A stretch of 64,000 nucleotides of DNA from Gammaproteobacteria bacterium (lineage in GTDB: Bacteria; Pseudomonadota; Gammaproteobacteria; Tenderiales; Tenderiaceae): the NCBI GenBank assembly GCA_024277755.1, contig JAJRUN010000052.1, positions 4,499-68,498 on the forward strand, written 5' to 3'. The position numbers and the translations under genes are program-made. Below are positions 1,652 to 55,277 of the stretch, in pieces (position 1 is the stretch's first letter; the number at the start of each line of letters is the position of its first letter). The notes below the pieces were generated by a model that was not told where the DNA came from, made no database searches, and saw only the letters and a list, made by a program, of their open reading frames with translations.

Positions 1652-3286
1652 TTACTCAATCGGTCGCACAGAGTCAGTCACAACCTGCGCATTAAAACTT
1701 TCCTGAATACGGCGCACATTTGGATCCGCATTAATGGCATCAACTGCCGCCTGCTGCTTATTCTCGGCCTGGCGTTTGTCTATCACGGCAGGCGTATGTT
1801 GCGTTTGAGTGCCTGCTGCAATGCTAAATTCCAATTTAATCGGCTCGCCAAAATACGTTTGCAAGGCCGCTTGCAACTGCATCTCCAATGATTTTCTACG
1901 CAACGAGGCATGCTGAGATGACAAGGCCAGCCGGATAACACCATTATCACGACTAATCATTTCTGAATTGGCAGCCAGTTGTTGCGCCATTCCCTTCAGC
2001 CCCAACTGGGCGACAATTTTATGCCATGACCCTGTCACTGCTGGACCGCGCTCCGCTATAGCAGATTTAACCGGTGCTGCAGAAGCCGTATTAGAATAAG
2101 CCTTAGAGGTAACGACCGGGGGCTGAGAGTTTTTCTGTGAAACCTGCTTCGGTGCGGTGTTTGAGGTTTGTATTTGTGTTTGTTGCAGACCGGATTGACT
2201 GCTGGCATCTGGACGAAAAGCCAGCATGCGCAACATAATCATCTCAAAACCGCTGCGCAGCTCAGGCGCAAAAGGCAAGTCGCGTCGACCAATCAAGCCA
2301 ATTTGATAATAAAGTTGGATATCTTCCTGCGGAATAGCTTGTGCAAGCGCGGTAATCGCCTCTTGTTCAGCGAGCCCTTCAGCCGTTTGTGGCACCACCT
2401 GTGCCAACGCTAATTTATGCAGTTGCGACACCAGCTCTGCCAGTACAGCAGTGAAATCAACCCCCTGCTGGGCCAGACCATTAATCGTCTCCAGAATGCT
2501 GGCGGCATCAGCATCAGCCAGTCCCTGCAATAATTTATAGACATGGCGGCGATCGACCGTGCCAAGCATGGCCCGCACCTCGTCGTCTACCAGCTTACCA
2601 CCGCCATAGGCAATGGCCTGATCCAGCAGGCTCAGAGCATCACGCATACTGCCATCAGCGCCTTCCGAAATCTGAGCAATGGCAGGTTTATCGAAACTAA
2701 TCCCCTCTTCACCCAGCACATATTCAAGGTGGCCGGCAATCATTTCCGGCGCCATGCGCTTTAGATTGAACTGCAGGCAACGAGACAAAATAGTCACAGG
2801 CAACTTCTGAGGATCGGTGGTCGCAAGCAGAAATTTCACATGTGGCGGAGGCTCTTCCAAGGTCTTCAATAAGGCATTGAAACTGTGGGTTGAGAGCATA
2901 TGCACCTCATCGATCAGATAGACCTTGAAGCGACCACGGGTCGGGGCATACTGGACATTTTCCAGCAGTTCACGGGTATCTTCAACTTTAGTGCGAGAAG
3001 CCGCATCCACCTCGATCAGATCAACAAAACGACCCTGATCAATCTCGGTACAGGCACTACACACACCGCATGGGCTGTAAGTAATCCCTTTTTCACAGTT
3101 CAATGATTTGGCAAAGATGCGCGCCACCGTGGTTTTGCCAACCCCACGAGTACCCGTGAAGAGATAGGCATGATGCAAGCGGTCATTGTCCAGGGCATTA
3201 ATCAGGGCACGCAGCACATGTTCCTGCCCAATCATGGCCGGAAAGCTCTTCGGCCGCCACTTTCGTGCCAGAACCTGGTAACTCAT
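1652..3286 (-). CDS. dnaX: DNA polymerase III subunit gamma/tau
   Basis: 544 aa. AAA+ clamp-loader motifs (GTRGVGKTT Walker A, DEVHML Walker B, SRC motif), zinc-binding cysteines, C-terminal tau-like low-complexity region. Confidence 0.9.
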   Translation of the reverse strand: MSYQVLARKWRPKSFPAMIGQEHVLRALINALDNDRLHHAYLFTGTRGVGKTTVARIFAKSLNCEKGITYSPCGVCSACTEIDQGRFVDLIEVDAASRTKVEDTRELLENVQYAPTRGRFKVYLIDEVHMLSTHSFNALLKTLEEPPPHVKFLLATTDPQKLPVTILSRCLQFNLKRMAPEMIAGHLEYVLGEEGISFDKPAIAQISEGADGSMRDALSLLDQAIAYGGGKLVDDEVRAMLGTVDRRHVYKLLQGLADADAASILETINGLAQQGVDFTAVLAELVSQLHKLALAQVVPQTAEGLAEQEAITALAQAIPQEDIQLYYQIGLIGRRDLPFAPELRSGFEMIMLRMLAFRPDASSQSGLQQTQIQTSNTAPKQVSQKNSQPPVVTSKAYSNTASAAPVKSAIAERGPAVTGSWHKIVAQLGLKGMAQQLAANSEMISRDNGVIRLALSSQHASLRRKSLEMQLQAALQTYFGEPIKLEFSIAAGTQTQHTPAVIDKRQAENKQQAAVDAINADPNVRRIQESFNAQVVTDSVRPIE

Positions 3287-3401: not shown

Positions 3402-3518
3402 GGTGGCGGCCCACGCCCGCCGCTCCCCGGCACACGAGTCTGTTACTACCGTTGCTCCCTTCCAGGCCTGGCGGAGTTCGTAACGTATCGTTGCGGGGTG
3501 ACCGACGCGAGCCACCAT
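3402..3518 (-). ncRNA. ffs: signal recognition particle RNA (4.5S RNA, small bacterial type)
   Basis: Minus-strand transcript GGUGGCUCGCG...CCCCGCAACG...CCAGGCCUGGAAGGGAGCAACGG...CUCGUGUGCCGGGGAGC...GGGCCGCCACC. It aligns block-by-block with E. coli 4.5S RNA (CCCGCAACG, CCAGGUCAGGUCCGGAAGGAAGCAGC, GCGUGUGCCGGGA; 5' and 3' ends pair). Typical position immediately upstream of dnaX. Confidence 0.85.
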
Positions 3519-3625: not shown

Positions 3626-4108
3626 TCAGTACCTGCCGTGGGTCTTGTTAATGTAGTTAGATAACTGATCTTTTTCCTGATTCATACGTAACAGGTTTGA
3701 ATGGGTAATGCGAAAGATAGAGCGCATCACTTTATAAACAATGCCGGGATGCTTTTCCAACAGTGACTCGAAGGCATCCGGTTCAAGGGTATAAACAACT
3801 GAATCGCCCTCTGCTTCCAGGGTTGCCTTACGCGGGCTGCGATCAACAAAGGCACGAGTACCTGCTACTTCCCCTACTTTCATGGTGTAGACGTGTTGTT
3901 GCTCACCCTCGGTCTCACTCACTACCTTTAGTTTGCCTTCCACTAAAACAAACAAGGTGTGCTCTGTGCCACTCTCATCAACCAGGCGTTCCCCCGCCTT
4001 TAGCTCACGTACATTCATAATACTGCTCAAAATTTCACATTCCTTGAGGGTCAACTCACCACCAAGAACAGATGAGCCAATCTTTTCAAAGTCTGGTTTA
4101 CGGGCCAT
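3626..4108 (-). CDS. stand-alone cyclic-nucleotide-binding (cNMP/CAP-effector) domain protein
   Basis: 160 aa. Beta-roll signature (GE..AL...RSATA-like: VGEVAGTRAFVDRSPRKATLEA) and a C-terminal helix, but no HTH DNA-binding domain. Confidence 0.75.
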   Translation of the reverse strand: MARKPDFEKIGSSVLGGELTLKECEILSSIMNVRELKAGERLVDESGTEHTLFVLVEGKLKVVSETEGEQQHVYTMKVGEVAGTRAFVDRSPRKATLEAEGDSVVYTLEPDAFESLLEKHPGIVYKVMRSIFRITHSNLLRMNQEKDQLSNYINKTHGRY

Positions 4109-14001: not shown

Positions 14002-14309
14002 AACTTATTCTTATATGAATATAAATAATATGAGCGCAATAGTAACAAAATTAGCTAATAATAAAATAATAGTGGACACTGCTTTGAAGTTCATGAACAA
14101 ATATATTCCCTTTGAGAAATCAATTTAAGGGTTAGTTAAGGATTTATCATTAGAATTGAATATACCTTCAGAGGGGAATGCAAACTCCCGAGAGAGGGCT
14201 TAGACCAGTAGAGTGGTTTAGTTAGGCGGTGGTCATTATTCACGGGGATTATGGGACTAATGGACTGCCAACTATGTAATTTTATATTTTTATCATAGGA
14301 GATATTGTC

Positions 14310-14411
14310 ATGGGTGGAATGGGCGGAAGAGGCGGAAGAGGCGGCATGGGTGGTGGACGCGGTGGACGCGGTGGACGCGGTGGACGCGGTGGTGGTGGCG
14401 GTCGTCGTTAA
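14310..14411 (+). CDS. 33-codon Gly/Arg-repeat micro-protein (MGGMGGRGGRGGMGGGRGGRGGRGGRGGGGGRR)
   Basis: ATG at 14310, preceded by AGGAGA (14297-14302) at 7-nt spacing; stop TAA 14409-14411; strong terminator 50 nt downstream. Below the ORF-track size cut-off. Confidence 0.45.
   Translation: MGGMGGRGGRGGMGGGRGGRGGRGGRGGGGGRR
14352..14387 (+). repeat. 4 x perfect 9-bp tandem repeat GGTGGACGC (encodes GGR x4) inside the micro-ORF
   Basis: Directly visible: ggtggacgc ggtggacgc ggtggacgc ggtggacgc, followed by ggtggtggtggcggtcgtcgt. Confidence 0.9.
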
Positions 14412-14461
14412 TCGACTGACACATCACACACTATCCATGTGGCCTAGCGCCATATGATAAA

Positions 14462-14493
14462 AACGGGGAACTTCGGTTCCCCGTTTTGCATTT
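14462..14493 (+). terminator. rho-independent terminator
   Basis: AACGGGGAAC-TTCG-GTTCCCCGTT hairpin followed by TTGCATTT. Confidence 0.7.
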
Positions 14494-14525
14494 AAAGCCT
14501 CAGCATCCCAAAATAATCTACAGTT

Positions 14526-16376: not shown

Positions 16377-16407
16377 CAAAAAAAAGGAGCCACTAAAGGC
16401 TCCTTTT
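16377..16407 (-). terminator. rho-independent terminator downstream of pnp (hairpin also readable on plus strand)
   Basis: AAAAAAAGGAGCC-ACTAAA-GGCTCCTTTT. Confidence 0.6.
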
Positions 16408-16432
16408 CATACCAGAAAAAGATTAAAACAAC

Positions 16433-18526
16433 TTAAGCTTCTTCAGTCACCGCCTTCATGCTCAAACGAATGCGGCCCTGTTTGTCAATTTCGAGTACCT
16501 TGACCTTAACCGTCTCACCTTCGGTGAGCTTGTCAGCCACATTCTCAACCCGTTCGTTTGAAATCTGTGAGATGTGAACCAGACCATCCTTGCCAGGCAG
16601 AACAGTCACAAAAGCACCAAAGTCCATCAGCTTGGCAACCAAACCATCATAGATCTTGCCAACTTCAACATCGGCAGTCAGCTCATTGATACGGCGTTTG
16701 GCTTCTTCACCTGCGGCCTTGTCGACAGAAGCAACCTTAACCGTGCCATCATCATCGAGATCAATTGTAGTACCCGTCTCTTCAGTCAGGGCGCGAATGG
16801 TTGCGCCACCCTTGCCGATAACATCACGAATCTTGTCAGGGTTGATCTTGAAGGTAATGATGCGCGGTGCGAATTCAGACAGCTCCTCGCGAGGACTGGA
16901 AATTACCTTGGCCATTTCACCAAGAATATGGATACGACCACCCTTTGCTTGAGTCAATGCAGCTTCCATGATCTCACGGGTAATACCTGTAATTTTGATA
17001 TCCATCTGCAATGCAGTGATGCCGTCAGAGGTACCTGCAACCTTGAAGTCCATATCACCGAGATGATCTTCATCACCAAGGATGTCAGACAGAACAGCAA
17101 AACGTTCACCTTCCTTGATCAGCCCCATCGCAATACCCGCAACAGGCGCCTTCAATGGGATACCTGCATCCATCATCGCCAGACTGGAACCACATACAGA
17201 GGCCATTGAGCTTGAGCCATTTGATTCTGTGATTTCAGAAACAACACGTACCACATATGGATACTCCTCCATGTCCGGCATAACAGCCTGAACACCACGT
17301 TTAGCCAAACGACCATGGCCGATTTCACGACGCTTGGGGCTACCTACAAAACCGGTTTCACCAACGCAGAACGGAGGAAAATTATAGTGCAGCATGAAAG
17401 GGTCTTTACGACTGCCTTCCACGGCATCAATCAGCTGTGCATCTTTGCCGGTACCCAAAGTGGTCACCACCAAAGCCTGCGTTTCACCACGGGTGAACAG
17501 GGCTGAACCATGTGTGCGTGACAAAACACCAACACGAATATTAATCGGACGCACAGTGCTGTTGTCACGGCCATCAATACGCGGCTGGCCTTCGATAATA
17601 CGATTACGAACAACACTCTTTTCCAGACTGCCAACTGCAGCACTGACATCGGCATCGCTCCATTTGGCATCATCACCACTTGACAGAGCTTCAACAACCT
17701 GACTGCGAACATCAGACAACTGGCTATAACGGCTTTGCTTTTCTTTAACCTGATAAGCAGCATCAATCTGAGCCTGAGCCTTATCACTGACCGCAGCGGC
17801 AAGGGCTTCGTCTTTAGCTTCTGGCTGCCAGTCCCAGGCTTCAACATCCGCTTCAGCAACAAACTCGCTGATTGAGTTAATAACGACCTGCAACTGCTCA
17901 TGACCAAACATGACCGAATCAAGCATGACCTGCTCGGACAGCTCTTTTGCTTCAGACTCAACCATCAACACGGCATCAGCCGTACCGGCAACAACCAGAT
18001 CAAGCTGTGAATCACCCAGTTGGGAGATACCCGGGTTCAGCAGGAACTGACCATCTTTATAACCAACACGAGCGGCACCGATTGGCCCCTGAAAAGGAAC
18101 GCCAGCCAACATCACAGCAGCAGAAGCACCAATCATGGCCGGAATATCAGGATCAATATCTGTATCTAATGAAACGACGGTGGCAATAATTTGGACTTCG
18201 TTTACAAACCCCTTAGGAAAAAGCGGGCGGATCGGTCTATCGATCAGACGGCATGTCAGAGTTTATTTTTCAGACGGACGACCTTCACGCTTGAAAAAGC
18301 CACCCGGAATCTTGCCTGCCGAGTAAGTACGCTCCTGGTAGTTAACCGTCAGTGGAAAGAAGTCACGCCCAGCGTCAGCCTCTTTCTTGGCCACACAAGT
18401 CACCAGCACAGCAGTATCGCCCATGCTACACATTACGGCACCAGATGCCTGACGGGCTATTTCACCGGTTTCCAGAGTGACTGTGTGGTCACCGTATTGA
18501 AAGACCTTTTTAATGGATGTCATCAA
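16433..18526 (-). pseudogene. pnp: polynucleotide phosphorylase interrupted by an in-frame TAA (two ORFs: 87 aa N-terminal, 567 aa C-terminal)
   Basis: ORF 18263-18526 = PNPase residues 1-86 ([20 protein letters not shown]...[11 protein letters not shown]). The same frame continues after TAA with [50 protein letters not shown] into ORF 16433-18136 (RNase PH domains, KH, S1). The stop replaces the conserved Glu of ...GRPSEGETLI... Confidence 0.85.
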
Positions 18527-18601
18527 TAATCCTTAAGATTTTTGGCTGAGATTAACGAAGTCGAAATCGTCGAATATTCTTGGCTAAAGCTAACGCCGCT
18601 C

Positions 18602-18871
18602 TTAGCGACGCAAACCCAGACGTGAAATCAGGTCACGGTAACGAGTGAGGTCTTTCTTTTTCAGATAATCCAGCAGTTTACGACGCTGACTTACCATGCG
18701 CAGCAGACCTTGGCGTGAATGGTGATCATGTGAATGTTCTTTGAAGTGACCAGACAACTGATCAATACGGGCACTCAATAGCGCTACTTGAACTTCTGGA
18801 GAACCAGTGTCTCCTTCAGCACGTTGATAATCAGAAACAACCTTCTGTTTGGCTTCTGCATTTAATGACAT
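18602..18871 (-). CDS. rpsO: 30S ribosomal protein S15
   Basis: 89 aa [36 protein letters not shown]... Confidence 0.95.
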
Positions 18872-18981
18872 TTATCTCTCCCAAGATTTTACTAAAAGCT
18901 TAAAGCGGCACATTTTACAGCCGCAAAGGACCTGAAACAAGCGTGGAATCACCTCAATCCCCATAAAAACAGGGATTTGGC

Positions 18982-36463: not shown

Positions 36464-38134
36464 ATGACACAATTACACTATGACGCCATCATCATTGGCG
36501 GAGGGGCTGCGGGCCTGAGCCTGGCATTACACTTAGCCAGCAAAGCAAAGATCGCAGTCATCACCAAAGGGGCACTGCACGAAGGTGCCACCTATTATGC
36601 CCAAGGTGGCATATCTGCTGTATTGGATGCCAAAGACTCGGTTGAATCACACATTGAAGATACCCAGCAGGCTGGTGCAGGCCTATGCGACCCTGATGTG
36701 GTGCGCTACACCGTTGAACATGGCCGTGAGGCCATTGACTGGCTAGTGGAATGCGGCGTCGATTTTGACCGCAAAACCCAGGCAGATGGCAGTTATGATT
36801 TCCACCTGACTCGTGAAGGCGGACACAGCCACCGCCGCGTACTGCACGCCTCTGATGCGACCGGCAAAGAAATCCAAAATAGCCTTGTCAGTCAACTCAA
36901 AAATCACGCCAATATTGATGTCCTGGAAAACCATATCGTCATCGATCTCATCACAGATGAAAACAATCGCAATCAAGGCTGCTATGTACTAGACAGACAA
37001 AACCAGCAAGTCACCACGCTTGCCTGCCGCTTTACTGTGCTCGCCACTGGCGGAGCCGGCAAGGTATATCTCTACACCAGCAACCCGGATGTATCCACCG
37101 GCGACGGCATTGCCATGGCCTGGCGCGCCGGTTGCCAAGTCGCCAACATGGAATTCGTGCAATTCCACCCCACCTGTCTTTATCATCCCAAGGCAAAGTC
37201 GTTTTTGATCACCGAAGCCATCCGCGGTGAAGGAGGCATTCTTAAGCTCCCAGACGGCACACGTTTCATGCCCAGTTTTCATCCCGACGCCGAACTGGCA
37301 CCACGTGACGTCGTCGCCCGCGCCATCGATCATGAAATGAAGCGCCTGGGTATCGACTGTGTTTATCTTGATATAAGCCACCAGGCGGCTGACTTCATTC
37401 GTACACACTTCCCCAACGTCTACACCAAATGTCTGACGTTCGGCATCAACATCACCCAAGAACCTATTCCTGTGGTTCCAGCAGCACACTACACCTGTGG
37501 AGGCGTCATCACCAACATGCATGGGCAAACCGATATAGCCAACCTCTACGCCATTGGTGAAACCGCCTTTACCGGGCTGCATGGTGCCAACCGTATGGCC
37601 AGCAACTCCCTACTTGAATGTTTGGTATTCGCCAAGGCCGCCGGACAGGACATAGCCAAACGCCTTAATGAGACCTATGCCCCCCCTAAACTACCCGAAT
37701 GGGATGCCAGCCGGGTAACCGAATCACCCGAAGAGATAGTCATCGCCCATGATTGGGACGAACTACGCCGTGTCATGTGGAATTATGTCGGTATCGTCCG
37801 TACCAACAAACGCTTGCAACGCGCATATAAACGAATACAGGTACTGCAAAAAGAGATCGACGAATACTACGCCAGCCATACCGTTAACAACGACTCACTG
37901 GAACTACGCAACCTGGTGCTTGTTGCAGAATTAATCGTACGTTCAGCCATACAACGTAAAGAAAGTCGTGGTCTGCATTACACGCTGGATTATCCTATGA
38001 CGGATAACAACAACCTACACAACACTATTCTAATCCCAGAAAACCCACATCATGCCCCACAACAATCAATAGAACCGATTAGGGATGACGCCGCTTCAGA
38101 TCAGCCAACCATAACGCCACCCGCTCCTTGTTGA
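36464..38134 (+). CDS. nadB: L-aspartate oxidase
   Basis: 556 aa; FAD-binding [13 protein letters not shown]; divergent from rpoE as in E. coli and Pseudomonas. Confidence 0.9.
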
Positions 38135-38630
38135 GTTCACTCATGCCTAAATAGTACTGATAATATTTAATTGCCACCACAGGCTGCTGTAAATAAAGGT
38201 CATACAAAACAGCCAGATTCAAAACCGGATCAGAATAGCCAGCATCCTTATCAACGGCTTGAAGATAAGCTGACTCCGCATCCTTAAAACGCCCCACAGA
38301 ACGATAAAAAATGGCGGCAGCATTATAAATTTTTGCACTTTCTGGCTGCAATTGAATTGCCTCATCAAAGGCAGCCGCCGCTTGTTCTGTCAAACCCTGG
38401 CGCTGATACAACAAGCCAAGATTGGCATACGGACCAGCGAGCCCAGGGTAGTCCAGAGTCATTTTTAAAAACTGCTCAATCGCCGTATCATCCTGACCAG
38501 CCTGCATAACAGCCAGTGAAAGCCGGTAATCATCTTCGGCCACAGCACTCTGGTGCTGCTTAGGTATAGCAGTACAGGCAGCCAAGATCAGAATCAGCAA
38601 TAAACATAAAATTCGCTTAATGCAAATCAT
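38079..38630 (-). CDS. TPR-repeat lipoprotein (small)
   Basis: Likely start [19 protein letters not shown] (lipobox LAAC); TPR-like helices. Overlaps the 3' end of nadB convergently. Last gene of a 7-gene minus-strand operon. Confidence 0.55.
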
Positions 38631-41415
38631 CAACCACCTCAATAATCAATTCCTGCTTGGCGTATTTCACCGGCAATAATTTTGCCAAGGTAGCAAACGA
38701 TTTGGCCACCCATTCGGTATACACCCCATCTCCAACACGATCAATATTCGACTCAAGAAACTTGATCGCCTGCTCTTCAAACGGATAAGCCTGTTCCTCA
38801 AGCATCATCTCATACTGCTCCATCTCTTCATCATCAAGCCCGGCAGGACGCGATGACTCAAGCAGGGCAATACTTAACTTAAAATATACCTCACCGATTC
38901 TACGATTTGCCGCCGTGACAAACTCAGCATAACCATAGCGGCTTGTTTTATCATAGGCCGCCAAAGCAAGTTCCATCTTCTTTTTCTTATTGGCAAGGTT
39001 TTTACGTAGCGGTTCAACCAATTTAATTAAATCAAACTCGATAAAACTTGCTTCAGCCAATATTAATGATGCACTGGCTGCATAGTATTGAATCACCTCA
39101 TTTTGCTGCGCCGCAACAAGTCCAGCGTTTTTAACAATCTGGTTCAGCCAATAATCACGCTTATCAAATTGACCAAGCTGTGTATAAATTTCCGACAACT
39201 GTGAACGCACATAAAACTTCTGCTCAGAGACACCGGGATATCGATACACATAGCGTTTATAAACAGCAATAGCCTTGAGTAAATGATTTACCTGTCGATA
39301 CAACTGGCCAGACTGTAGCAAGGCTTCTTGCTGGACGTCAGTATCCCGGCTACGATTGGCAATCTGCTCATAGGCATTAGCTGCATCCGCAGTCCTTTCC
39401 AATTTTAAATAGACATAAGCAAGCTTAACCGGAACCTCAGACTGTAATTCATGCCCTGGATAAGCCGTTTGAAATTTTTCCAGCAAGCCTGCTGCCTGAC
39501 GCCACTCTTCCATACCAATCAGCGCAGCTGCCGCATCATATTTTGCCTGGGCAACAAGTTTACTATTGGCCGCAACGGCCTCTATTCTAAGCAGATGTTC
39601 TACAGCCAGGCGCATCTCACCGCGTTCCAGAAAAGCCTCTGCCTGTTTATAAATAGAGGATGCCAGCCATTCCTCAGACTCGAGTGTCTGGCCACCCAAT
39701 TCACTCTGATAATTGAGTGCCCGCTGATAGGCCATTTCGGCCTGAAGAAAATCCTGATTCTGAAAACTGATATGCCCCACCATCATCCAGGCAGAAAAGG
39801 CATCCTCAGATACAAGTTCTTGAGGGCCATCTAGCAACAACTTAAGCAGCAACATCGCTTTGTCATTATCACCCCGATCAAAATCATCACTGGCAAGTGA
39901 CAACACTGTATTCGGCACACGCCGGTCATCAGGAAAATGAGAGATAAATTTCTGCGCACTCTGATGTAATCGTTGACGCCAACTATCTGCCTCACTCTCT
40001 ACACCGACCTCTAACTGTTTTTGATAGCTTAAAATGGCGCTATAAGCCGCCCCTGCTGCCCACTCATTATTTGGATAAAAATAAGCAACCTGTTCAAATT
40101 CGTCACCCGCTTCCTGATAGTGTCGGTTATCAAATAAAATTTCAGCAAATAAAAAGTGTTTTTCAACCGCATTAGCTTGCGAATGAAAATTTTTAAGATA
40201 GACCTGATACCAATTAACCGCTGCATTAAAGTCTGACTCCAGCTTGGCCTTCTGAAAACGCGCATGATAAAAGTCAGTCAAGTCATTCAAATAAGCCATG
40301 GCAAAATCAGAAATATAGACAGCATACTCAATAGAAAAACCAATCACTGTCTCGCCACGATACCAATGTTGATTAAGAAATTCTTCCTTGGCCTTTATCA
40401 CTTGCGTTTGATCATTAAGAACCCGATAAGCATCCACCAGCCTCAATTGAAATATAGCAGCACTGTAGGACTTCGGATAACGGGCGATATAGGCAGCATA
40501 GGTCTGCACTTCATCCAGATAACGCTCATCTTTATGATATAGCTCCGCCAGACTCTGAAAGATTAAATGAATGTGCTCTGCCTGAGCATATTTATGACTG
40601 AAATATTCTAACTCGTGAATATCATTTTTCAAGGCGAAAATTAAAGTCATACCACGCAGAATATCAGTCAGAATTTCTAGATCTGCCTTGCCAATATCAA
40701 TAGGTTTACCGTTGATCTGATCAAATTCAACCTGATCAAGTTTCAAATCAAGCAACTGAAAAAATGATTCCAGAGCATCATCAAATCGATCCTGTTTAAA
40801 AGCAGCCCAACTGAATTTGAGCAGGCTTTGTTCATAAAACGGCCTACCCTTACCCTTCTCAACCACAACTGAATATAAGGTCGCTGCCTGATCGTAATTG
40901 CCATCCAGAAAGTTTAATTCTGCAATCCTGAAATTGGCTTCAGAAAAATAGCGACTATTTTGATGCTGGCTAACCAACCTTAATAACAGCTGAGCAGTCT
41001 TATCAATTTCACCCCGCTTGTCATAGACCCGGGCAAGTTGATAGAGAACCAAATCAGTCTCTGAATAATTAGGATAACTATTTAGCAACTCTTCGTAAAT
41101 TAAAATGGCCTCAGGGTATTCATTGATTTTCTCAACACCACTGCCATCTGCCTGTTTTATTTCACGCTGCTCACCATAATCCAGCAACAAATCAGCAAGC
41201 CGATGCATGGCTTGTGGCCGAAACGGGTTATCAACAGAAAACACCAACAACTGCCGATAAGATTTAATTGTTTCAAGTGGCGAAATTTGCAACGGTTGTT
41301 GCCTATCAGGCTTTACATCAGTACCTTCAAGCTCAGACAGTGTCACACCAGAATATTTTGAACTGCTGCAAGCAACAAGAAAGAGAACCATCATCCCAAT
41401 GAACAAGGGTTTCAC
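38617..41415 (-). CDS. large TPR-repeat lipoprotein (932 aa)
   Basis: Signal/lipobox MMVLFLVACSS; numerous TPR-like repeats throughout. Size and architecture resemble PEP-CTERM-type TPR lipoproteins, but no exosortase is present here. Confidence 0.6.
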   Translation of the reverse strand: MKPLFIGMMVLFLVACSSSKYSGVTLSELEGTDVKPDRQQPLQISPLETIKSYRQLLVFSVDNPFRPQAMHRLADLLLDYGEQREIKQADGSGVEKINEYPEAILIYEELLNSYPNYSETDLVLYQLARVYDKRGEIDKTAQLLLRLVSQHQNSRYFSEANFRIAELNFLDGNYDQAATLYSVVVEKGKGRPFYEQSLLKFSWAAFKQDRFDDALESFFQLLDLKLDQVEFDQINGKPIDIGKADLEILTDILRGMTLIFALKNDIHELEYFSHKYAQAEHIHLIFQSLAELYHKDERYLDEVQTYAAYIARYPKSYSAAIFQLRLVDAYRVLNDQTQVIKAKEEFLNQHWYRGETVIGFSIEYAVYISDFAMAYLNDLTDFYHARFQKAKLESDFNAAVNWYQVYLKNFHSQANAVEKHFLFAEILFDNRHYQEAGDEFEQVAYFYPNNEWAAGAAYSAILSYQKQLEVGVESEADSWRQRLHQSAQKFISHFPDDRRVPNTVLSLASDDFDRGDNDKAMLLLKLLLDGPQELVSEDAFSAWMMVGHISFQNQDFLQAEMAYQRALNYQSELGGQTLESEEWLASSIYKQAEAFLERGEMRLAVEHLLRIEAVAANSKLVAQAKYDAAAALIGMEEWRQAAGLLEKFQTAYPGHELQSEVPVKLAYVYLKLERTADAANAYEQIANRSRDTDVQQEALLQSGQLYRQVNHLLKAIAVYKRYVYRYPGVSEQKFYVRSQLSEIYTQLGQFDKRDYWLNQIVKNAGLVAAQQNEVIQYYAASASLILAEASFIEFDLIKLVEPLRKNLANKKKKMELALAAYDKTSRYGYAEFVTAANRRIGEVYFKLSIALLESSRPAGLDDEEMEQYEMMLEEQAYPFEEQAIKFLESNIDRVGDGVYTEWVAKSFATLAKLLPVKYAKQELIIEVVDDLH

Positions 41416-43295
41416 TGACCGTCCTCATCAATCTTCAGATTAATATCGTAAATATGCGCGACTGAGAGCAGTGCTTGAGAACGATATATTTCAATTTTTT
41501 CTTTAACTACAACCAGCTCATCAACAAGCATGGAATGCAAATAAGCATCATACTGTTGCAGTAAAGAATCAACCTGATCCGCTGCTGTTTTCAGCTGCTG
41601 GGCGACAGTCGCCAACCGCTGCCTATGGCCATCGTAGTTCTGCGGCAGGGACTTTATGATTTCTTTTATATTTCTTTTATATTGATCAGCGTGACTGTTT
41701 TTCTTTTCTAACTCAGACAGATTATTTTTTATATTTCTAAGTCGAATTTTATAACGGGTCATCAAATCCCACTTTAACAACCCAGCCAGCAGACGATTTT
41801 TATGCTGCAGATCCGCCATTCGACCAAGCAGTTCTGCAGGTTTTAGTTTTCCTTCGAAATTTTCAAGGCTATATGTAATCCGCTCATTTACACGACGAAA
41901 CTGATGCAAGTTTTTCAGCTCAGTAGAATCAGCAAGCGCCAGGGCGTCCTCATCCATTTCTATCACCGAAATTCTGGCAGAAAACACCTGAATGGCCTTA
42001 CTGTGATTCTGCTCTGACAACTGTTTAAGCCTGTCCATGGCCCTTGGCTTAAGTTCGGAATTGGCCGAAACTTTCACATCAACAATATCATCAAAGACAT
42101 GAATGCTTGTCAGCCATTTACCCAGGTTTTTTTTAATAAACAGTAAATCCCGATAATTTTTCAGGCTCTCCTGAAATTTATGACTAGAGATAAATTCCAG
42201 AATATATGGGCTCTGCAATACCCCCTCCAACACATCATGCTGCCAGTACCAACCGATCTCATCGTCAGAATCAAGTTCGACCATAGCCAAAATCAATTCA
42301 GAAAAATCTGTTATTTCAAGCTGCTGATCAATCGAATTCAACTGCTGATGATACACATCAATGGCCTTTTTATATTCAGCCAACGAGTCCGAATAGTTCC
42401 CGGTTTGATATAACAAATATGGTTTGGCCAGATAGGCTTCAAGTATATTGACATCAATAGGCTCACGATCTGCCAGTTCAGACCAGGCCGTATTGGCAAT
42501 GGCAAACTCATTGATACCGAATGCCGACCAGCCTAGCCCTAACAAGGCTGGATTTGAAAATCGGCCATGCAATTCAATCTGGCCAAAATACTGACTAGCC
42601 AGCTCAAACTGTTGGTTTTTCAGGTGCAGGTTTGCTAACAACAAATTGACCCTATCAATCAAAGCTGCAGACTCCGCATCTTGCCTCGGCACTGCCGCAA
42701 CCTTATTCAGCAGCGTTATGGCTAATGCCTGATCACCCTGTTTGAGAAGTGAAATGGCTAGATTTGAACGGGCATAAACAGAGTTTTTATTTCCTTTGAT
42801 CTGTTTTTCTAAAAACTCAATGGCTTGCTCAACCTTGTTAATCTTCATCAAGCTAAGCGCCGTCAAGGTCAGGCGTTCATCTTCAAGCTTTCCAGGCAAT
42901 GGTAAAGTTATTTTTTCAAGATGATCATAGGCTAACTGATAATAGCCTCGCTGAAATTGAATCTTCGCCAGATAAAACCAGGCACGATCTCGCGACTGCT
43001 TATCAACCGCGGTCTCAAGAACACGATTGAATATCTGTTCTGCATTTCGCTGCAGGCCATATCCCAGATATAAGCTGCCAAGCAAGGCCTTAGCCTCAAG
43101 AGCATCAACCGCCAACGTGCCTTGGCTCAGTCCCTTTTCAAGTTGAATAATGGCGCTAAAGAACTTTTGCTGGTTGAAATTAAACAGCACCTCGCCATAA
43201 AAAGGGCTGTTGACTCGTTGAACATCTGCCTTAATCGGAGTAATGAATAAACAGAATAACGTCAGCAGCAATACAAAAAACTGAATAACACCCAT
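41412..43295 (-). CDS. secreted TPR-repeat / coiled-coil protein (627 aa)
   Basis: Signal peptide; N-terminal TPR repeats; C-terminal long coiled-coil-like region (K/E/L-rich). Confidence 0.55.
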   Translation of the reverse strand: MGVIQFFVLLLTLFCLFITPIKADVQRVNSPFYGEVLFNFNQQKFFSAIIQLEKGLSQGTLAVDALEAKALLGSLYLGYGLQRNAEQIFNRVLETAVDKQSRDRAWFYLAKIQFQRGYYQLAYDHLEKITLPLPGKLEDERLTLTALSLMKINKVEQAIEFLEKQIKGNKNSVYARSNLAISLLKQGDQALAITLLNKVAAVPRQDAESAALIDRVNLLLANLHLKNQQFELASQYFGQIELHGRFSNPALLGLGWSAFGINEFAIANTAWSELADREPIDVNILEAYLAKPYLLYQTGNYSDSLAEYKKAIDVYHQQLNSIDQQLEITDFSELILAMVELDSDDEIGWYWQHDVLEGVLQSPYILEFISSHKFQESLKNYRDLLFIKKNLGKWLTSIHVFDDIVDVKVSANSELKPRAMDRLKQLSEQNHSKAIQVFSARISVIEMDEDALALADSTELKNLHQFRRVNERITYSLENFEGKLKPAELLGRMADLQHKNRLLAGLLKWDLMTRYKIRLRNIKNNLSELEKKNSHADQYKRNIKEIIKSLPQNYDGHRQRLATVAQQLKTAADQVDSLLQQYDAYLHSMLVDELVVVKEKIEIYRSQALLSVAHIYDINLKIDEDGQ

Positions 43296-43301
43296 GCCCC
43301 A

Positions 43302-43844
43302 TCATTCCCACTCTTTAACTAGAAACTTGGGCTGGTTTTTTTCTTGTGACTCTGAAATTTTCAGTTCAATGTATTTCGGATCAAATGTTTTTACAAAGAT
43401 ATAACTCGCTCCACGGCGATAGTCCCGACCATTGGGGCCTGTACCGGTAAAAATCACCACCACTTCATGCTCACCCTTTTTAAGGTTCTCAACATGAAGT
43501 TTCTGTACACCTCCTTTACTCAAGGCTTTGACCTCCCTGTCTGTATAGAGATAATTGCTCACAACTTTGCCATCGAGCGTCAATTTAATTGAATCCAGTT
43601 TGAAATAAGTATCACCTTCCATCGAAAGAAAAAAGAAGGTTTGCGTATTAACAGGAAACAGCAGCTCTTCTTCAAGGATAAACAGTTCTCGATTGATGGA
43701 AATAACGTCCTTTTTCAGGGCTTCAACTTGTTCATCAAGACTTTGAAATTCTTGTGTATCGGCAGCGGCGCCTATCACTGGCAACACAAGCATGCTCATC
43801 AAGCCAATTCCCAACCACCTCTTTTTATAAAACCAACTCATCAC
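43302..43844 (-). CDS. small secreted protein of unknown function (180 aa)
   Basis: Signal peptide MMSWFYKKRWLGIGLMSMLVLPVIGAAA; no recognisable family. Operonic with flanking genes (gaps 7-10 nt). Confidence 0.45.
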   Translation of the reverse strand: MMSWFYKKRWLGIGLMSMLVLPVIGAAADTQEFQSLDEQVEALKKDVISINRELFILEEELLFPVNTQTFFFLSMEGDTYFKLDSIKLTLDGKVVSNYLYTDREVKALSKGGVQKLHVENLKKGEHEVVVIFTGTGPNGRDYRRGASYIFVKTFDPKYIELKISESQEKNQPKFLVKEWE

Positions 43845-43853
43845 CAGAACTTC

Positions 43854-45440
43854 CTAAATCGTGCCATTAACTATCGGGGCAAAGGCGGTCAAACTATCCA
43901 GCATAGTGCTATTACCCAATCCATGGTTTGAAAATTGTGTTGCAAAACTACCCTGTTCACCATGCAGAGCCATGTAATTCAACGCGATGGTTTCAACAAG
44001 CAGATTGACATTATTGGCCGCCGGGCTTGAGGCCGTTTCTACCGAGGCGTCTGAACGAAAATAACCGATTTGCTGATGCCGCGCCTGCTGATCAGCATTG
44101 GCTCCGAGCAAGGAGGGTCGGCCACCTGGATTATAAACCAGAAAAAACGATGCGGCGGTGGATGAGTTATCCCCGGTCCAGACACCTTTTCCCCGCCCTT
44201 CAACTGAGTCATCAATCGTACCATTGCTCGCCACAGAACCATCACTGAAAACGTAAATCATCAATGGCATGCCAAGCCGTGCGGCATATTCAAGGCAGGC
44301 ACCAATACAACGACCGGCACGAAGATCACGTATTTCACCAACTGAGCGATTACCGGTATGGTAATCATAACCGCCCATGGTAATAGTGCCCGCACCTGCA
44401 AAACCGTTAACTACCAGTTTCATTACTGCAGCAGTTTTACGAAACTCGGCATCGCTATCCAGTTCAGCCTGCGAAAATATAGCACCAATAATATTGGGAT
44501 CAATATTCGGATTGAGTGCCGCCGGATCACCATAGCGATCCACCAGATCAGCCGCTTTAACGTAACCACAGTTGATCATATCTTTCAGCACAGCATCAGC
44601 AGTTATCTTGCTATCGACTCGCCCCAGTTTTTTAGCACTGATACGCTGAATTGATTCCAGCACCGCCACAGCATCATCCTGACTCAGCAAGCCAACCAGT
44701 TTTCCGGTATCAACCAGCCCCGTCACATCGCTGGGACGATCTATTTTGGTCGGCCGCACCGCACTGTTAATCATTGCCGCAGGTGCAACTGAGTTACCGC
44801 CAGAGTCAGAGCTGCGCGAACCAATCAGTGTCAACAATTCACCATCGGCTCCAGCCCTGTTAATGGCGTACATGGGGTTATGCGGATTATTGCCCGTATC
44901 ATTATCAGAGCGTGCCGGGATCACTGCACCATTAACACCGGCATGGGTCGACACTGACGTTCTCTCCAAAATTCCGCGCAAGAAAGCGCTGTCAGAGTGA
45001 AACGCCAAACCAAGATCGGTATTAATAAAATCGCGTGTACCGCTGTCTGCATTGGCGATGAATGGCGCCATGTCACCCGGCAGACCAAGCTTGTTGTAAC
45101 CCGCCGTAGAAAGAAAATCGAGCTGCCCTCCTTGTTGTCCCACCAGCACATTTGAACCACTGATGTTTGCGCCACCCGCCAGATCAAAACAGATAAACGG
45201 GATTTTTCCTGCCCCCTGAGCAGCAATGCCGCAACTCCCCTTCAAGGTCTCAAGATCAGCCGACAAGGCCGCCTGGGCTGTGCGTGGATTAGCAAACAAG
45301 CTGAAAATTGTCGGCCCCATGGCAAGCCCCAGCCCCGCGGTCAAACCTTGGGCAAGAAAGTCACGTCGTGTAACCGGCCGTTTGTGATTAGCGTGCAACA
45401 GTGGTGCATCAGGTGAAAGTAATCTGGATTTTCTCGACAT
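43854..45440 (-). CDS. TAT-exported DUF1501-like protein (sulfatase/alkaline-phosphatase-superfamily-like partner of PSCyt/PSD proteins)
   Basis: 528 aa; twin-arginine signal VTRRDFLAQGLTAGLGLAMG...AQA. Size and position immediately downstream of a multi-CXXCH PSCyt-like protein are typical of DUF1501. Confidence 0.55.
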   Translation of the reverse strand: MSRKSRLLSPDAPLLHANHKRPVTRRDFLAQGLTAGLGLAMGPTIFSLFANPRTAQAALSADLETLKGSCGIAAQGAGKIPFICFDLAGGANISGSNVLVGQQGGQLDFLSTAGYNKLGLPGDMAPFIANADSGTRDFINTDLGLAFHSDSAFLRGILERTSVSTHAGVNGAVIPARSDNDTGNNPHNPMYAINRAGADGELLTLIGSRSSDSGGNSVAPAAMINSAVRPTKIDRPSDVTGLVDTGKLVGLLSQDDAVAVLESIQRISAKKLGRVDSKITADAVLKDMINCGYVKAADLVDRYGDPAALNPNIDPNIIGAIFSQAELDSDAEFRKTAAVMKLVVNGFAGAGTITMGGYDYHTGNRSVGEIRDLRAGRCIGACLEYAARLGMPLMIYVFSDGSVASNGTIDDSVEGRGKGVWTGDNSSTAASFFLVYNPGGRPSLLGANADQQARHQQIGYFRSDASVETASSPAANNVNLLVETIALNYMALHGEQGSFATQFSNHGLGNSTMLDSLTAFAPIVNGTI

Positions 45441-45454
45441 TATCTTCTCACCCT

Positions 45455-47959
45455 CTACTGAATCAACATCACAGCACTACCCAGCATGGCAGCACAGCTT
45501 GCTTTAACCACCACCTCAGTACGACCCTCAGCACAATTACCACCACAGGCAGTCAGTTTTGTGATTAAAGCATCGAGTTCAGATGTCATATCCGCAACCA
45601 GTGGCTGGCTGTTCAAACCGTTACCGGCAATATTATTCAACAACGGCATAATCACCTTACTTCTGCCGCTGGTATCGAAGGCTACATTGACCCCGGCACT
45701 GAAATCAAAACCTGGAAAATAACTGGCACGCAGACCAGCATCATTAACCAGGGCATTACAGTATTCTATCGCCAGTTGCGAAATCGCTACCTGATGCGCA
45801 GAAAGAAATCCATCAATCGATTCAACCGTCGGCAACTGCTGTTTAACGGTTTCGTAGGTGGTCTGAACATCCGTCTGTGTCGTCGCAATGCCGGTCACAG
45901 CAGACATAGTGGCATTAATCTCAGAAAAGATGCGCAGACCAATATCAGCTTTAGCCTCACTGCTTGCTGATGGCGCCGGCTGTAACGGTTGCGACTCGAC
46001 ATAGACATTGCTTTTGCCAGCCAGCGTCTCAAAACTAAGAAAAAACTCATCCGCCGCAATTCCCTTTTCCAGCGGAATGATCGTCCCCAGCTCAGACAGC
46101 AGCTGTGCCTTGGCATTGAACTGGTCACTTTGAACAAACGAACCATTGCTAATGGTCGTATTCAAATTGGCATAGGCCTGACCAACCGCCGACTCTTTAC
46201 CGTTAATGCCAATACGCAAGCCAGCAATATTAAAACTGCCGGGTTCTACCCCAGTATCCAGACTGATAAACATGGGCCGACTAAACAGATAACTGTAACT
46301 ATCAAACTGACTCACTTCAAACAGAACATAACTTTCAGACACATCAACAACATGACCAACACTGAACAACAGAAAAAACTTTTCGCCCACACCAGCCTTA
46401 AAGTTCTTTTGAATCTGCGCCAAACTGAGGGCACGATTATGCACCGCTACCAGCCGCAGCTTACCCTGCCATGGGTGATCATTCGTGACCTCATTGGCCA
46501 GAATAAAAGCAAAAGTTTCATCCCAGTCGTTCAGGTTTCCCGGCTGCTGATCATCCAGGTCATCGGTAAAGACACCATTAACAAAGATACTGCGACCATT
46601 AACCGGATCATAGGTAATCACCACATGCTGTTCAGTGGCCTGCAAGTCTTCATCAGCATCAGCACTGGACAGAGCCGGTTCACCATTGGCATCAGTGCTG
46701 CTGCTACGATTTAAAAAATCATAGTTATATAAAGTCTGACCCAAGGTAAAGTTTCTGTCATTTGTCCCAGCTGAATAACTGATAATACGTGCAGGGCCTT
46801 CCTGATTGACATTGGCTGGCACCATCCAGGCCTCTATCGAGTATTCACCCGAGGCCTTGATAAAATCACTGAGTTTTTTACTGTCGCTAGTGGTGCCCTG
46901 AGCCTTGCTATTGACAAAATCAACCCCCCAACCACCCACCCATTTGTAATCAACACCTTCAGTACCCGATAACTGCAAATGCAAGGAAGGCGAGATACCG
47001 CTAACATCATAGATGGTGTTACCACTCCCCTGCTTAAATTCATACAGGGCAATGACATTCGCTTCATGACGACTGCCACCACTGGCGATACTGCCATCAG
47101 CAAGGGTTAAAGCTTTACTCAATACCAATTGTGGATCAACCTGCGTCAGTGCAATACCATTGGTAAAGTCATTGACGGCCTGTTCAATCTCGCTGGCATT
47201 GGCCTGGCAGTCGTTCCAGCAATTATGAAATTCATTACGCAAACGAACCACCAACCTGGAATTGGCCGGTGTGTCCAGATCTAACTTATAGCTGGTTTTA
47301 AGTGCATCATAGGCTGCCTCAACATCACTGCTTGAAAAATAAGGAGCCTGCGGAATCTGCGCTGACTCGGCATGACAATCGGCACAGTATTGCGTTAGTA
47401 AAGGATAAACCGTGGTTGAAAATAAACTGCTATCCGCAGGAAAACTTTTACTGTCACCGGCATCTTTGATCTGTGGTGCCAGCAGCACAATCTGTTTGCC
47501 AAGGCTGTCGCCAGCCCCCCCCAACCAGTTTTCAATATAGGCCGTCATAATCACAGCGCAGGCATTGCTGCTTGTCTCCCAGCAATTATGCCCGCCGGCC
47601 ACCTTGCTCACCAATCTTGAATTTGCCGGCACATCTAAATCAACAACACTAATCGCATCGCTATAGGCCAGATTAATATCATCACTGCGAACAAAGGTCG
47701 GCGATTGACCATTGCCGCCATGACAGTTGCCACACTTGGCCAGCAGATTGTCCCAAAGATTGGTTTTGAAACTTTGCACATCAGTGGTTGCCGGCTCTGG
47801 GCCGCTATAATTTCTAAGGCTGGTGTTTTCCGTCGCAACACCGGGTTCCAGCGGCACGTTATCACAAGCCATCAATAACAAACCAAACCACACAAACAGC
47901 AATGAGCGTATCAATTTATTCATCTTAATCGCCCTTGCAGTAGTCTGCGGTTTCGGCAA
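45455..47959 (-). CDS. secreted multidomain lipoprotein: two tandem CXXCH (planctomycete-cytochrome-C-like) domains + LamG/ConA-like domain + C-terminal domain
   Basis: Likely start MNKLIRSLLFVWFGLLLMAC (lipobox). Two about 110-aa repeats, each with CXXCH (CGNCH, CADCH), PANSRLV and HNCW motifs, then a LamG-like segment (EAWMVPANVNQEGPARIISYSAG...FVNGV). The DUF1501 gene follows. Confidence 0.55.
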   Translation of the reverse strand: MPKPQTTARAIKMNKLIRSLLFVWFGLLLMACDNVPLEPGVATENTSLRNYSGPEPATTDVQSFKTNLWDNLLAKCGNCHGGNGQSPTFVRSDDINLAYSDAISVVDLDVPANSRLVSKVAGGHNCWETSSNACAVIMTAYIENWLGGAGDSLGKQIVLLAPQIKDAGDSKSFPADSSLFSTTVYPLLTQYCADCHAESAQIPQAPYFSSSDVEAAYDALKTSYKLDLDTPANSRLVVRLRNEFHNCWNDCQANASEIEQAVNDFTNGIALTQVDPQLVLSKALTLADGSIASGGSRHEANVIALYEFKQGSGNTIYDVSGISPSLHLQLSGTEGVDYKWVGGWGVDFVNSKAQGTTSDSKKLSDFIKASGEYSIEAWMVPANVNQEGPARIISYSAGTNDRNFTLGQTLYNYDFLNRSSSTDANGEPALSSADADEDLQATEQHVVITYDPVNGRSIFVNGVFTDDLDDQQPGNLNDWDETFAFILANEVTNDHPWQGKLRLVAVHNRALSLAQIQKNFKAGVGEKFFLLFSVGHVVDVSESYVLFEVSQFDSYSYLFSRPMFISLDTGVEPGSFNIAGLRIGINGKESAVGQAYANLNTTISNGSFVQSDQFNAKAQLLSELGTIIPLEKGIAADEFFLSFETLAGKSNVYVESQPLQPAPSASSEAKADIGLRIFSEINATMSAVTGIATTQTDVQTTYETVKQQLPTVESIDGFLSAHQVAISQLAIEYCNALVNDAGLRASYFPGFDFSAGVNVAFDTSGRSKVIMPLLNNIAGNGLNSQPLVADMTSELDALITKLTACGGNCAEGRTEVVVKASCAAMLGSAVMLIQ

Positions 47960-49130
47960 ACACCTGTTTCAGATTGTAGTTACTGGCTTTAAACGAGCTA
48001 ACCGTGGCCTCGAACTGGGGCAAATCCGTATTAACAGGTTCACGCAGACAGACTGCCTTGAACACCTTTTTTACCTGACAACTGGCAAAGGCCTCAGAGT
48101 TAGCCAATTCAACGCCCATTGACTTGGCACCGCTGCCACTGGCCGCCAGACCTTGAGACTGAGTATCCCAACCCAATACAGCATTCGGACCATTACGCCA
48201 GTAGTTATCCCAACGATCATCAGGCGTGACGTAACCATATTTAAAGTTGTTAGCATTGATATGGTATTTTTTCTTTACTCGCGTCCCCGTATCAGGATCA
48301 ATCACACCAACATCGTTGTAGCTTAAGCGACCATTCTCAGCATCAGGATCCGCTTCACTGTCATATTCAAAGTTGTAATAGGCATAGGCCTGGGTCAATG
48401 GGTCCATACCGGCATGGCAACCAAGACAGGCATTGATAAAGAGACGGCTGTCACCCCCAGGACTGCGGGAAACATCCTGACGAACCCGGTCTGCCGCACG
48501 GGTAGCATCCTTGATCTGTTCAAGGTCGGTGCAAAGATGATTGAGAATAGTAAAGCGAAACATGGCACGGTTAGTGCCATCGATAAAAAAGGCCTTAGCC
48601 GCCGCACGTGTGGAAATCACCCCAGCAGTGGCATTCGCTGTTAAACCTGTTACCGATGATTGAGCCTTCTGCACCAAACCATTCGCTAGATTGACACCGT
48701 TTTTTTCCATGGCTTCATAGTGATCATTATTGGTATTTGAATATGCAGGCAGAGCCAGACTGTTATCACCAACATAAATCAAGTCGGCAGACAGTATCTG
48801 GCGAAAATCGATATCATCGCGCACCATACCGATGACTGTGGCACTGTAATCATTCAAAGGGGCAAATACAGTCTGCGCTTCATTGGTCCAGGGGGTAACA
48901 AGGTTTTTCAAGGTCACACTATAAAAGGCAGGGTGCTGCATGGCCTTATAGGCAGCCGAAATTGCATCACCTGCGTTAATATCTGCCGCCATACTTACTA
49001 GCGTTTCCTCATCAGCAGGCACCCCGGCAACTCGATCATGAATCCGTTTTGCCTGGTCACGGCTATCCGCCAGTGCGGACAAACTGATTGCAAAAGAAGC
49101 CATCAAAAAATATTTTAAATACGACGTCAT
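47925..49130 (-). CDS. secreted protein with single CXXCH motif (PSCyt-like)
   Basis: 401 aa, signal peptide; FINACLGCHAGMDPL heme-c-binding-type motif. First gene of the minus-strand operon. Confidence 0.5.
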   Translation of the reverse strand: MTSYLKYFLMASFAISLSALADSRDQAKRIHDRVAGVPADEETLVSMAADINAGDAISAAYKAMQHPAFYSVTLKNLVTPWTNEAQTVFAPLNDYSATVIGMVRDDIDFRQILSADLIYVGDNSLALPAYSNTNNDHYEAMEKNGVNLANGLVQKAQSSVTGLTANATAGVISTRAAAKAFFIDGTNRAMFRFTILNHLCTDLEQIKDATRAADRVRQDVSRSPGGDSRLFINACLGCHAGMDPLTQAYAYYNFEYDSEADPDAENGRLSYNDVGVIDPDTGTRVKKKYHINANNFKYGYVTPDDRWDNYWRNGPNAVLGWDTQSQGLAASGSGAKSMGVELANSEAFASCQVKKVFKAVCLREPVNTDLPQFEATVSSFKASNYNLKQVFAETADYCKGD

Positions 49131-53902: not shown

Positions 53903-54121
53903 ATGGCCAGAACCATCGCCACAACCTGCCTATTGCTAGTGCTTGGTGGCTGCTCAATTCAGCCCTGGGTCAAGCCTTATGAACGGGCCAGGTTAGCCGA
54001 CCCCATCATGAGTTTTAATCGTGACCCTATTTCATCAAGTTATATCAATCATGTCTATCAAGCACGTGAAGGTGCCCGCGGTGCAGAAAACGGACAAGGT
54101 GGTGGCTGTGGCTGTAATTAG
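53903..54121 (+). CDS. DUF4266-family small lipoprotein
   Basis: 72 aa; lipobox LVLGGC; P-W-x-(K/R)-P-x-E-R motif; diagnostic C-terminus GQGGGCGCN. Confidence 0.7.
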   Translation: MARTIATTCLLLVLGGCSIQPWVKPYERARLADPIMSFNRDPISSSYINHVYQAREGARGAENGQGGGCGCN

Positions 54122-55277
54122 AATCAACAACAAACATCTCAGTAAAATTGTTGCCGCTACCATCGCACTTGGCATCACCTTTCCATTGATGGCCGCTATT
54201 CTGCCCGCTGATCGTTTCGATGCCCTGGTGCACTCCTATAATGGCGGCGGCATGGAGATTAATGGCCCCTCACTATTGATTCGCAAAATGCTTGGCACCA
54301 GCACCTCGGTGTCGGCCAATTATTATATCGACTCCATCAGCAGCGCATCGATTGATGTCATCACCTCCGCCAGCCCCTATAAAGAAGAACGCAAGGAGCA
54401 CTCGGTCGGTATCGAATATTTGCATGATAAAAGCATCATGAGCTTTAACTACAGCAACAGTAAAGAAAATGACTACCAGGCAAAAACCTACAGCGTAAGC
54501 ATATCGCAGGATTTTTTTGGCGACCTGACCACCCTGTCCATGGGTTATGCCCGTGGCGATGACATAGTGCAACGCATCGTCAACACCCCCACGGGAAAAA
54601 CCCTTGACCTGAACTTTGGCAGCAAAAATACAGACCGGCAAAACTTCCGTCTCGGACTGTCACAAATACTCAGCAAACAAATGATACTGGGGCTGAACTA
54701 CGAGTTAATCACCGACAAGGGTTTTCTCAACAACCCCTATCGTCAGGTTCGTTTTGCCGATGGCAGTAAGGCCTTTGAAATCTATCCCAACACTCGCTCA
54801 AGCAATGCAGTATCAGCACAACTTAAATACTACCTCCCCTACCGCGCCGCACTCACGGGCGAGTTAGGGGTTTTTAATGATACTTGGTCCATTAACGCCA
54901 GCCACCTGAAATTAGCCTACAGTCACCCCCTTAAAAACGATTGGCTCATCGACCTGCGCTATCGTTATTATGACCAAAGTCGTGCCAGCTTTTACAGCGA
55001 CCTCTTTAGCGCGCCAGGGGCACAAACCTATATGGCACGAGATAAAGAACTCAGCAGTTTCAACAATCAAACCATTGGCTTTAGTGTCAGTTATGATCTG
55101 TCTCAACATGGCTGGAAACGGGTAGACAAAGGCAGCATCAACCTTGCCTTTGATCACATGATATTTGATTATCAGGACTTCAGGGATGCCTCGGTCGAGG
55201 GTGGCGAGATTGGCGCAGAACCGCTCTACAGCTTTTCCAGCAACGTGATACAGATGTACCTATCCATCTGGTATTGA
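54104..55277 (+). CDS. DUF3570-family protein (predicted outer-membrane beta-barrel), partner of DUF4266
   Basis: About 390 aa. Probable GTG start overlapping the DUF4266 stop gives a signal peptide (...KHLSKIVAATIALGITFPLMAA); ORF track shows the longer 54021 start. Beta-strand-rich; C-terminal aromatic residues. Confidence 0.55.

Follow-up and report, generated by a model that had tools for sequence, protein, structure and literature searches.

An in-frame TAA in pnp of a Tenderia-like gammaproteobacterium is an isolated G>T change private to one sequence record

Introduction

Does the TAA at codon 87 of pnp, the gene for polyribonucleotide nucleotidyltransferase (PNPase), in a gammaproteobacterium related to Candidatus Tenderia reflect a defect of the sequence record, a real and very recent loss of function, or a stop codon that the cell bypasses? 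An initial annotation of this locus had offered all three explanations. We addressed the question with the window, by which we mean the whole 64-kb stretch of DNA that was analysed, and with homologous proteins and related contigs.

Results

A single lesion in pnp

Translation of the minus strand from 18526 to 16433 gave one internal stop and then the natural TAA terminator. This confirmed that pnp carries a single in-frame TAA, as the initial annotation had reported with correct transcription and coordinates; the 18136 given there as the start of the feature is the ATG of the downstream ORF. The coding strand reads GAA AAA TAA ACT CTG around the internal stop, and plus-strand position 18265 is an A where an intact gene would show C. 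The step from GAA (Glu87) to TAA is one G>T transversion on the coding strand. As a deterministic single-base feature, the internal TAA is not something to which a chance statistic applies. The features of the locus are collected in Table 1.

Table 1. Features of the pnp locus, in window coordinates
Feature	Position	Strand	Description
pnp (polyribonucleotide nucleotidyltransferase)	16433..18523	-	696 codons, colinear with full-length orthologues, one interruption at codon 87
In-frame TAA, codon 87 (counted from ATG at 18523)	18265..18263	-	plus strand reads TTA at 18263-18265
N-terminal fragment ORF, 86 aa plus stop	18263..18523	-	ends in first RNase PH domain, profile position 73 of 130
Downstream ORF, 567 aa, from first in-frame ATG (Met130)	16433..18136	-	identical to gene-caller product P0047
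rpsO (ribosomal protein S15)	18602..18871	-	intact, upstream in rpsO-pnp operon; protein identical to L001/L088
Ribosomal S15 leader RNA (Rfam RF00114)	18815..18931	-	47.2 bits against a gathering score of 39.5, full model matched
Terminator-like hairpin followed by T-run	16381..16408	-	25 nt past natural pnp stop

The uninterrupted frame expected of a full PNPase was thus absent, owing to this one TAA. No second lesion was found over the 696 codons, either by translation or by gap-free alignment to the related contigs L001, L002 and L003. Taken together, the two fragments displayed the complete PNPase architecture in Pfam: RNase_PH, RNase_PH_C, the PNPase alpha-helical domain, RNase_PH, (RNase_PH_C), KH and S1. 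The first core domain is complete in neither fragment; the 567-aa ORF starts within RNase_PH_C.

The genomic context was also that expected of pnp. On the minus strand the cluster runs rimP, nusA, infB, rbfA, truB, rpsO, pnp, in the same order as in L001-L003, with pnp downstream of rpsO. The S15 leader lies upstream of rpsO and overlaps its start. Since the full leader model was matched, S15 autoregulation is probably conserved in the Tenderia-like lineage. A 112-aa ORF on the plus strand (18191-18529), antisense to the 5' part of pnp, covers the position of the stop. It is almost certainly a spurious shadow ORF, which a gene caller could select because pnp is broken there.

Glutamate at codon 87 in the relatives of pnp

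We searched 5.8 billion protein clusters with a query in which the stop had been changed to Glu; 8000 matches were scored and 120 listed. This returned thousands of full-length PNPases, the best with 99%, 97%, 97% and 96% identity and 695-699 aa, and pnp was full length in every relative retrieved. The 99% match is a 696-aa protein (P0001) with the same domains as the pnp product. Among the matches listed, the nearest named homologue was that of Candidatus Tenderia electrophaga (86%), and the close relatives all came from metagenomes (hydrothermal vent and JGI samples).

Lys-Glu occupied positions 86-87 in all 120 listed homologues, which were 76-99% identical to the query. In the alignment at the stop, E. 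coli PNPase (PDB 3h1c) reads GRPSEGETLI and Coxiella PNPase (4nbq) GRPTEKETLT, each with Glu at the stop position. The proposal that the stop replaces a conserved Glu one substitution away was therefore borne out. The comparison with related genomes that had been suggested along with it gave the same picture in DNA: codon 87 was GAA (L001, L085) or GAG (L002, L003/L087, L084, L086) in all six related contigs read there, so that a stop was present in none of these six and in none of the 120 listed homologues. The nearest DNA relative, the hydrothermal-vent metagenome contig L001, is 91.7% identical over pnp at the nucleotide level and reads GAA AAA GAA ACC.

For a metagenome scan we used a degenerate 29-mer spanning the stop, in which the first base of the stop codon was set to N; it recovered four contigs. 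All four had G at that position, and none of them came from the same population as the window. Across about 15 billion catalogued proteins, the truncated 567-aa product (100% identical) occurred on exactly one contig, an NCBI entry of 72,461 bp. The catalogue held no intact protein identical to the PNPase allele of the window, the closest differing at 8 residues, and look-ups of the 567-aa product, of the 86-aa fragment and of the product's cluster in the catalogue found no independent assembly of the source population. A look-up of the identical S15 protein pointed to L001 alone, and among the matches listed in a scan of genome contigs no relative exceeded 73% identity.

Selection on pnp and the age of the change

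Derived substitutions in pnp were polarised with four outgroup genes. Besides the stop, the lineage of the window had accumulated 51 synonymous changes and 4 replacements (V121T, P335S, A540V, T543S), and the sister lineage L001 40 synonymous changes and 3 replacements. Random substitution in pnp would be expected to give 73% missense, 24% synonymous and 3% nonsense changes, or about 25 missense changes for each nonsense change. Set against this expectation, the ratio of 51 to 4 indicates that strong purifying selection acted on pnp along virtually the entire branch. In the polarised substitutions of the pnp lineage we detected neither a phase of neutral decay nor a backdrop of unselected base changes, and the gene has thus spent essentially no time free of selection.

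An old, decaying pseudogene was rejected, as the gene carries a single lesion and its 51 to 4 resembles the 40 to 3 of the intact sister. The strength of selection and the intact surroundings together imply that the stop is either extremely recent or artefactual, and we estimate that any inactivation of pnp would be confined to the last 1-2% or so of the branch.

The flanking genes were examined in the same way. Derived changes numbered 7 synonymous to 0 nonsynonymous in rpsO (sister 4 to 0), 37 to 11 in truB (sister 28 to 11) and 70 to 22 in the ABC transporter gene (sister 63 to 30). None of these three genes showed an excess of unselected changes over the sister contig.

One of the four replacements in pnp lies at a mostly conserved site. 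Codon 335 (17519-17521, minus strand) encodes Ser in GVL-S-RTHGS through a lineage-private change of CCA to TCA, and the matched homologues have Pro in 109 of 115, Ala in 4 and Asp in 1. P335S is thus a second unusual lineage-private change, which may be genuine or may be a further oddity at the base level.

The rest of the window

A Pfam scan found full-length domain coverage in about 30 other genes of the window. These include genes for an ABC transporter, an OmpR-type regulator, a DegP-like protease, a catalase and a hybrid sensor kinase, as well as acpS, pdxJ, recO, era, rnc, lepB, lepA, uvrB and dnaX. A scan for in-frame stops found no other split gene in the window, where gene packing is tight and suspicious frame-switching pairs are absent. 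Within the 64 kb, the TAA in pnp thus stands alone.

Several other features of the window were recorded. The bacterial small SRP RNA (RF00169, 65.2 bits) was found at 3411-3507 on the minus strand, in a 339-nt gap between dnaX (1652-3286) and an ORF at 3626-4108. A stretch of 524 nt (14002-14525) with no ORF of at least 60 aa separates the OmpR-type response regulator from the ABC transporter gene; the equivalent gap in L001 and L002 contains just a tiny called ORF of 29-31 aa.

G+C content falls to 0.413 at 40001-44000, compared with 0.45-0.50 in the other 4-kb windows. This dip is located within a run of minus-strand ORFs (38079-49130) that encodes large TPR proteins (187, 932 and 627 aa), an 834-aa protein with a Laminin_G_3/ConA-like domain, and three products without a Pfam match (180, 528 and 401 aa). 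The run may be an acquired or surface-structure gene cluster.

On the plus strand (49370-52033), an 887-aa protein combines a hydrazine-synthase-alpha middle domain (PF18582) with PD40 beta-propeller repeats; 3' of its gene are several small ORFs and then a gene for a DUF3570 protein (54021-55277). In a relative of an electroautotroph the PF18582 domain is unusual, and it may have a connection with redox or outer-membrane functions. A 1522-aa hybrid sensor kinase (58356-62924, minus strand) has PAS, GAF, HisKA and HATPase_c domains, two receiver domains and Hpt, and is adjoined by a receiver-domain protein (62952-63989) that reaches the end of the window.

A defect of the record or a real allele

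The TAA is an isolated G>T change, private to one sequence record, in an otherwise intact pnp. We see about an even chance that it is an error, or an unfixed variant that was promoted into the consensus. The organism would then have a working pnp, and the T would be a defect of the record that arose as a base-call or consensus error, or as a rare variant promoted into the assembled consensus. The contig that carries it appears to be draft or metagenome-derived: a consensus assembly is likely for a 72-kb contig whose close relatives are all of metagenomic origin.

We infer an artefactual cause, rather than a real mutation, from the position of the stop, its relation to Glu, the relatives, the selection on the gene and the intact surroundings. 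The Glu in 120 of 120 listed homologues and the GAA or GAG in six of six contigs argue for it, as do the intact S15 leader, rpsO and terminator, the lack of a second lesion, and the restriction of the truncated product to one contig in the catalogue. PNPase has also been reported to be essential for low-temperature growth of E. coli and C. jejuni (PMC3417396). The relatives from marine and vent sites probably live in cold water, and a fixed pnp null allele would be costly there.

Against an error stands the quality of the sequence. The window has no signs of noisy assembly, with its roughly 30 full-length genes and no other split gene, and truB, rpsO and the ABC transporter gene show the same pattern of derived changes as their counterparts on the sister contig. 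With an error rate this low, any particular error is improbable.

The main rival is therefore a real and very recent loss of function, which we regard as a serious possibility, somewhat short of an even chance. Cells of this lineage would carry TAA at codon 87 and would be pnp-null or severely hypomorphic; they would make the 86-residue fragment and at most traces of an N-terminally deleted protein, and further decay would not yet have accrued. The base is in the record, within 64 kb that look accurately assembled, and one lesion unaccompanied by other decay is the look of a young pseudogene. In published work, pnp knock-outs of E. coli, Campylobacter, Pseudomonas and Rhodobacter have served as viable strains. 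Since many bacteria survive the loss of pnp and G>T mutations often arise spontaneously, we consider a real allele almost as probable as an error. However, this explanation has to accommodate a gene that is full length in every one of the relatives retrieved, very strong constraint on the same lineage (51 synonymous changes to 4 replacements), an allele seen in one assembly only, and the requirement for PNPase in cold growth (PMC3417396).

Bypass of the stop or a change of the genetic code

The remaining explanations keep the stop and have the cell cope with it. In the first, the TAA is real but is bypassed by an ochre-suppressor tRNA, by read-through, by re-initiation or by a two-piece enzyme. 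The frame does continue perfectly past the stop and still encodes a conserved protein, which is equally expected under the other explanations. However, none of the relatives has a stop at codon 87, so this is not a conserved recoding site. RNA structure in the 151 nt around and after the stop had a minimum free energy of -28.8 kcal/mol against a mean of -29.7 for shuffled sequences (z 0.27), and reading of the sequence found no in-frame slippery heptamer of the form X XXY YYZ near the stop. The window contains no suppressor tRNA, its sole tRNA being tRNA-Met. UAA is, moreover, the least leaky stop codon in bacteria. A programmed read-through or recoding site was rejected, given that the stop occurs in no relative and no stimulatory structure accompanies it; the TAA is not a programmed signal.

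Re-initiation fared no better. No in-frame ATG, GTG or TTG occurs between codons 88 and 129, where we found only weak near-cognates (CTG89, CTG93, ATC and ATT), and a Shine-Dalgarno-like sequence is absent from the 18 nt before the ATG at codon 130. A product begun at Met130 would have none of the first RNase PH domain (profile positions 1-130), which the stop itself cuts at position 73 of 130. We therefore regard bypass of a real stop as very improbable.

The three explanations offered initially thus part company: an error and a recent pseudogenisation both fit the evidence, whereas a suppressed stop finds no support, as the stop is absent from every relative, most often it is TAA that genuinely ends a gene in the window, and local RNA structure is lacking. 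The further suggestion that re-initiation downstream might give a useful truncated PNPase likewise finds no support, given the missing start codons at 88-129, the missing Shine-Dalgarno-like sequence and the loss of the first RNase PH domain.

That the TAA is real and fixed and that a functional PNPase is nevertheless made, whether by an ochre suppressor, by efficient read-through at GAA-AAA-UAA-A or as a two-piece enzyme of residues 1-86 plus a re-initiated C-terminal part, seems to us more improbable still. If true, this would be a naturally occurring example of a core enzyme of RNA decay that continues to function despite a nonsense codon.

Reassignment of TAA to a sense codon, for which nothing speaks beyond the in-frame TAA itself, is next to impossible. 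Of the 44 large ORFs in the window, 21 end in TAA, more than in any other stop; they include pnp, infB, nusA and rpsO, and their domain coverage is normal and full length. As an in-frame TAA interrupts no further gene, a code change is excluded.

Discussion

The lone stop in pnp is an everyday draft-genome situation, of a kind already known. It resembles the ordinary 'internal stop' pseudogene calls of draft genomes and metagenome-assembled genomes, in which one base has changed, the rest of the gene is colinear, and the product called by the gene finder is a shortened one that starts at the next ATG, here the 567-aa protein. We found no difference that would distinguish the pnp case from such calls. 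With programmed read-through and nonsense suppression it shares an in-frame stop beyond which a conserved frame stays open. Unlike those systems, the pnp stop is not conserved, has no stimulatory structure and is accompanied by no suppressor tRNA in the window, where TAA is the main terminator.

A further comparison is with laboratory null and truncation mutants of pnp in E. coli, C. jejuni, P. aeruginosa and R. sphaeroides. If the allele is real, its bearer would likewise be without PNPase activity. Those mutants were engineered or selected and their phenotypes tested, whereas the pnp of the window is known from its sequence alone. By analogy with them, cold sensitivity and altered sRNA and mRNA turnover would be expected of a real allele (PMC3417396).

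If the TAA is an error, the consequence is an annotation fix only: pnp is intact, and is neither a gene for a 567-aa protein nor a pseudogene. If it is real, it is one more young loss-of-function allele. Its modest interest would then lie in the absence of PNPase, an enzyme tied to cold growth and sRNA turnover, from a relative of Candidatus Tenderia that lives free in marine or vent habitats.
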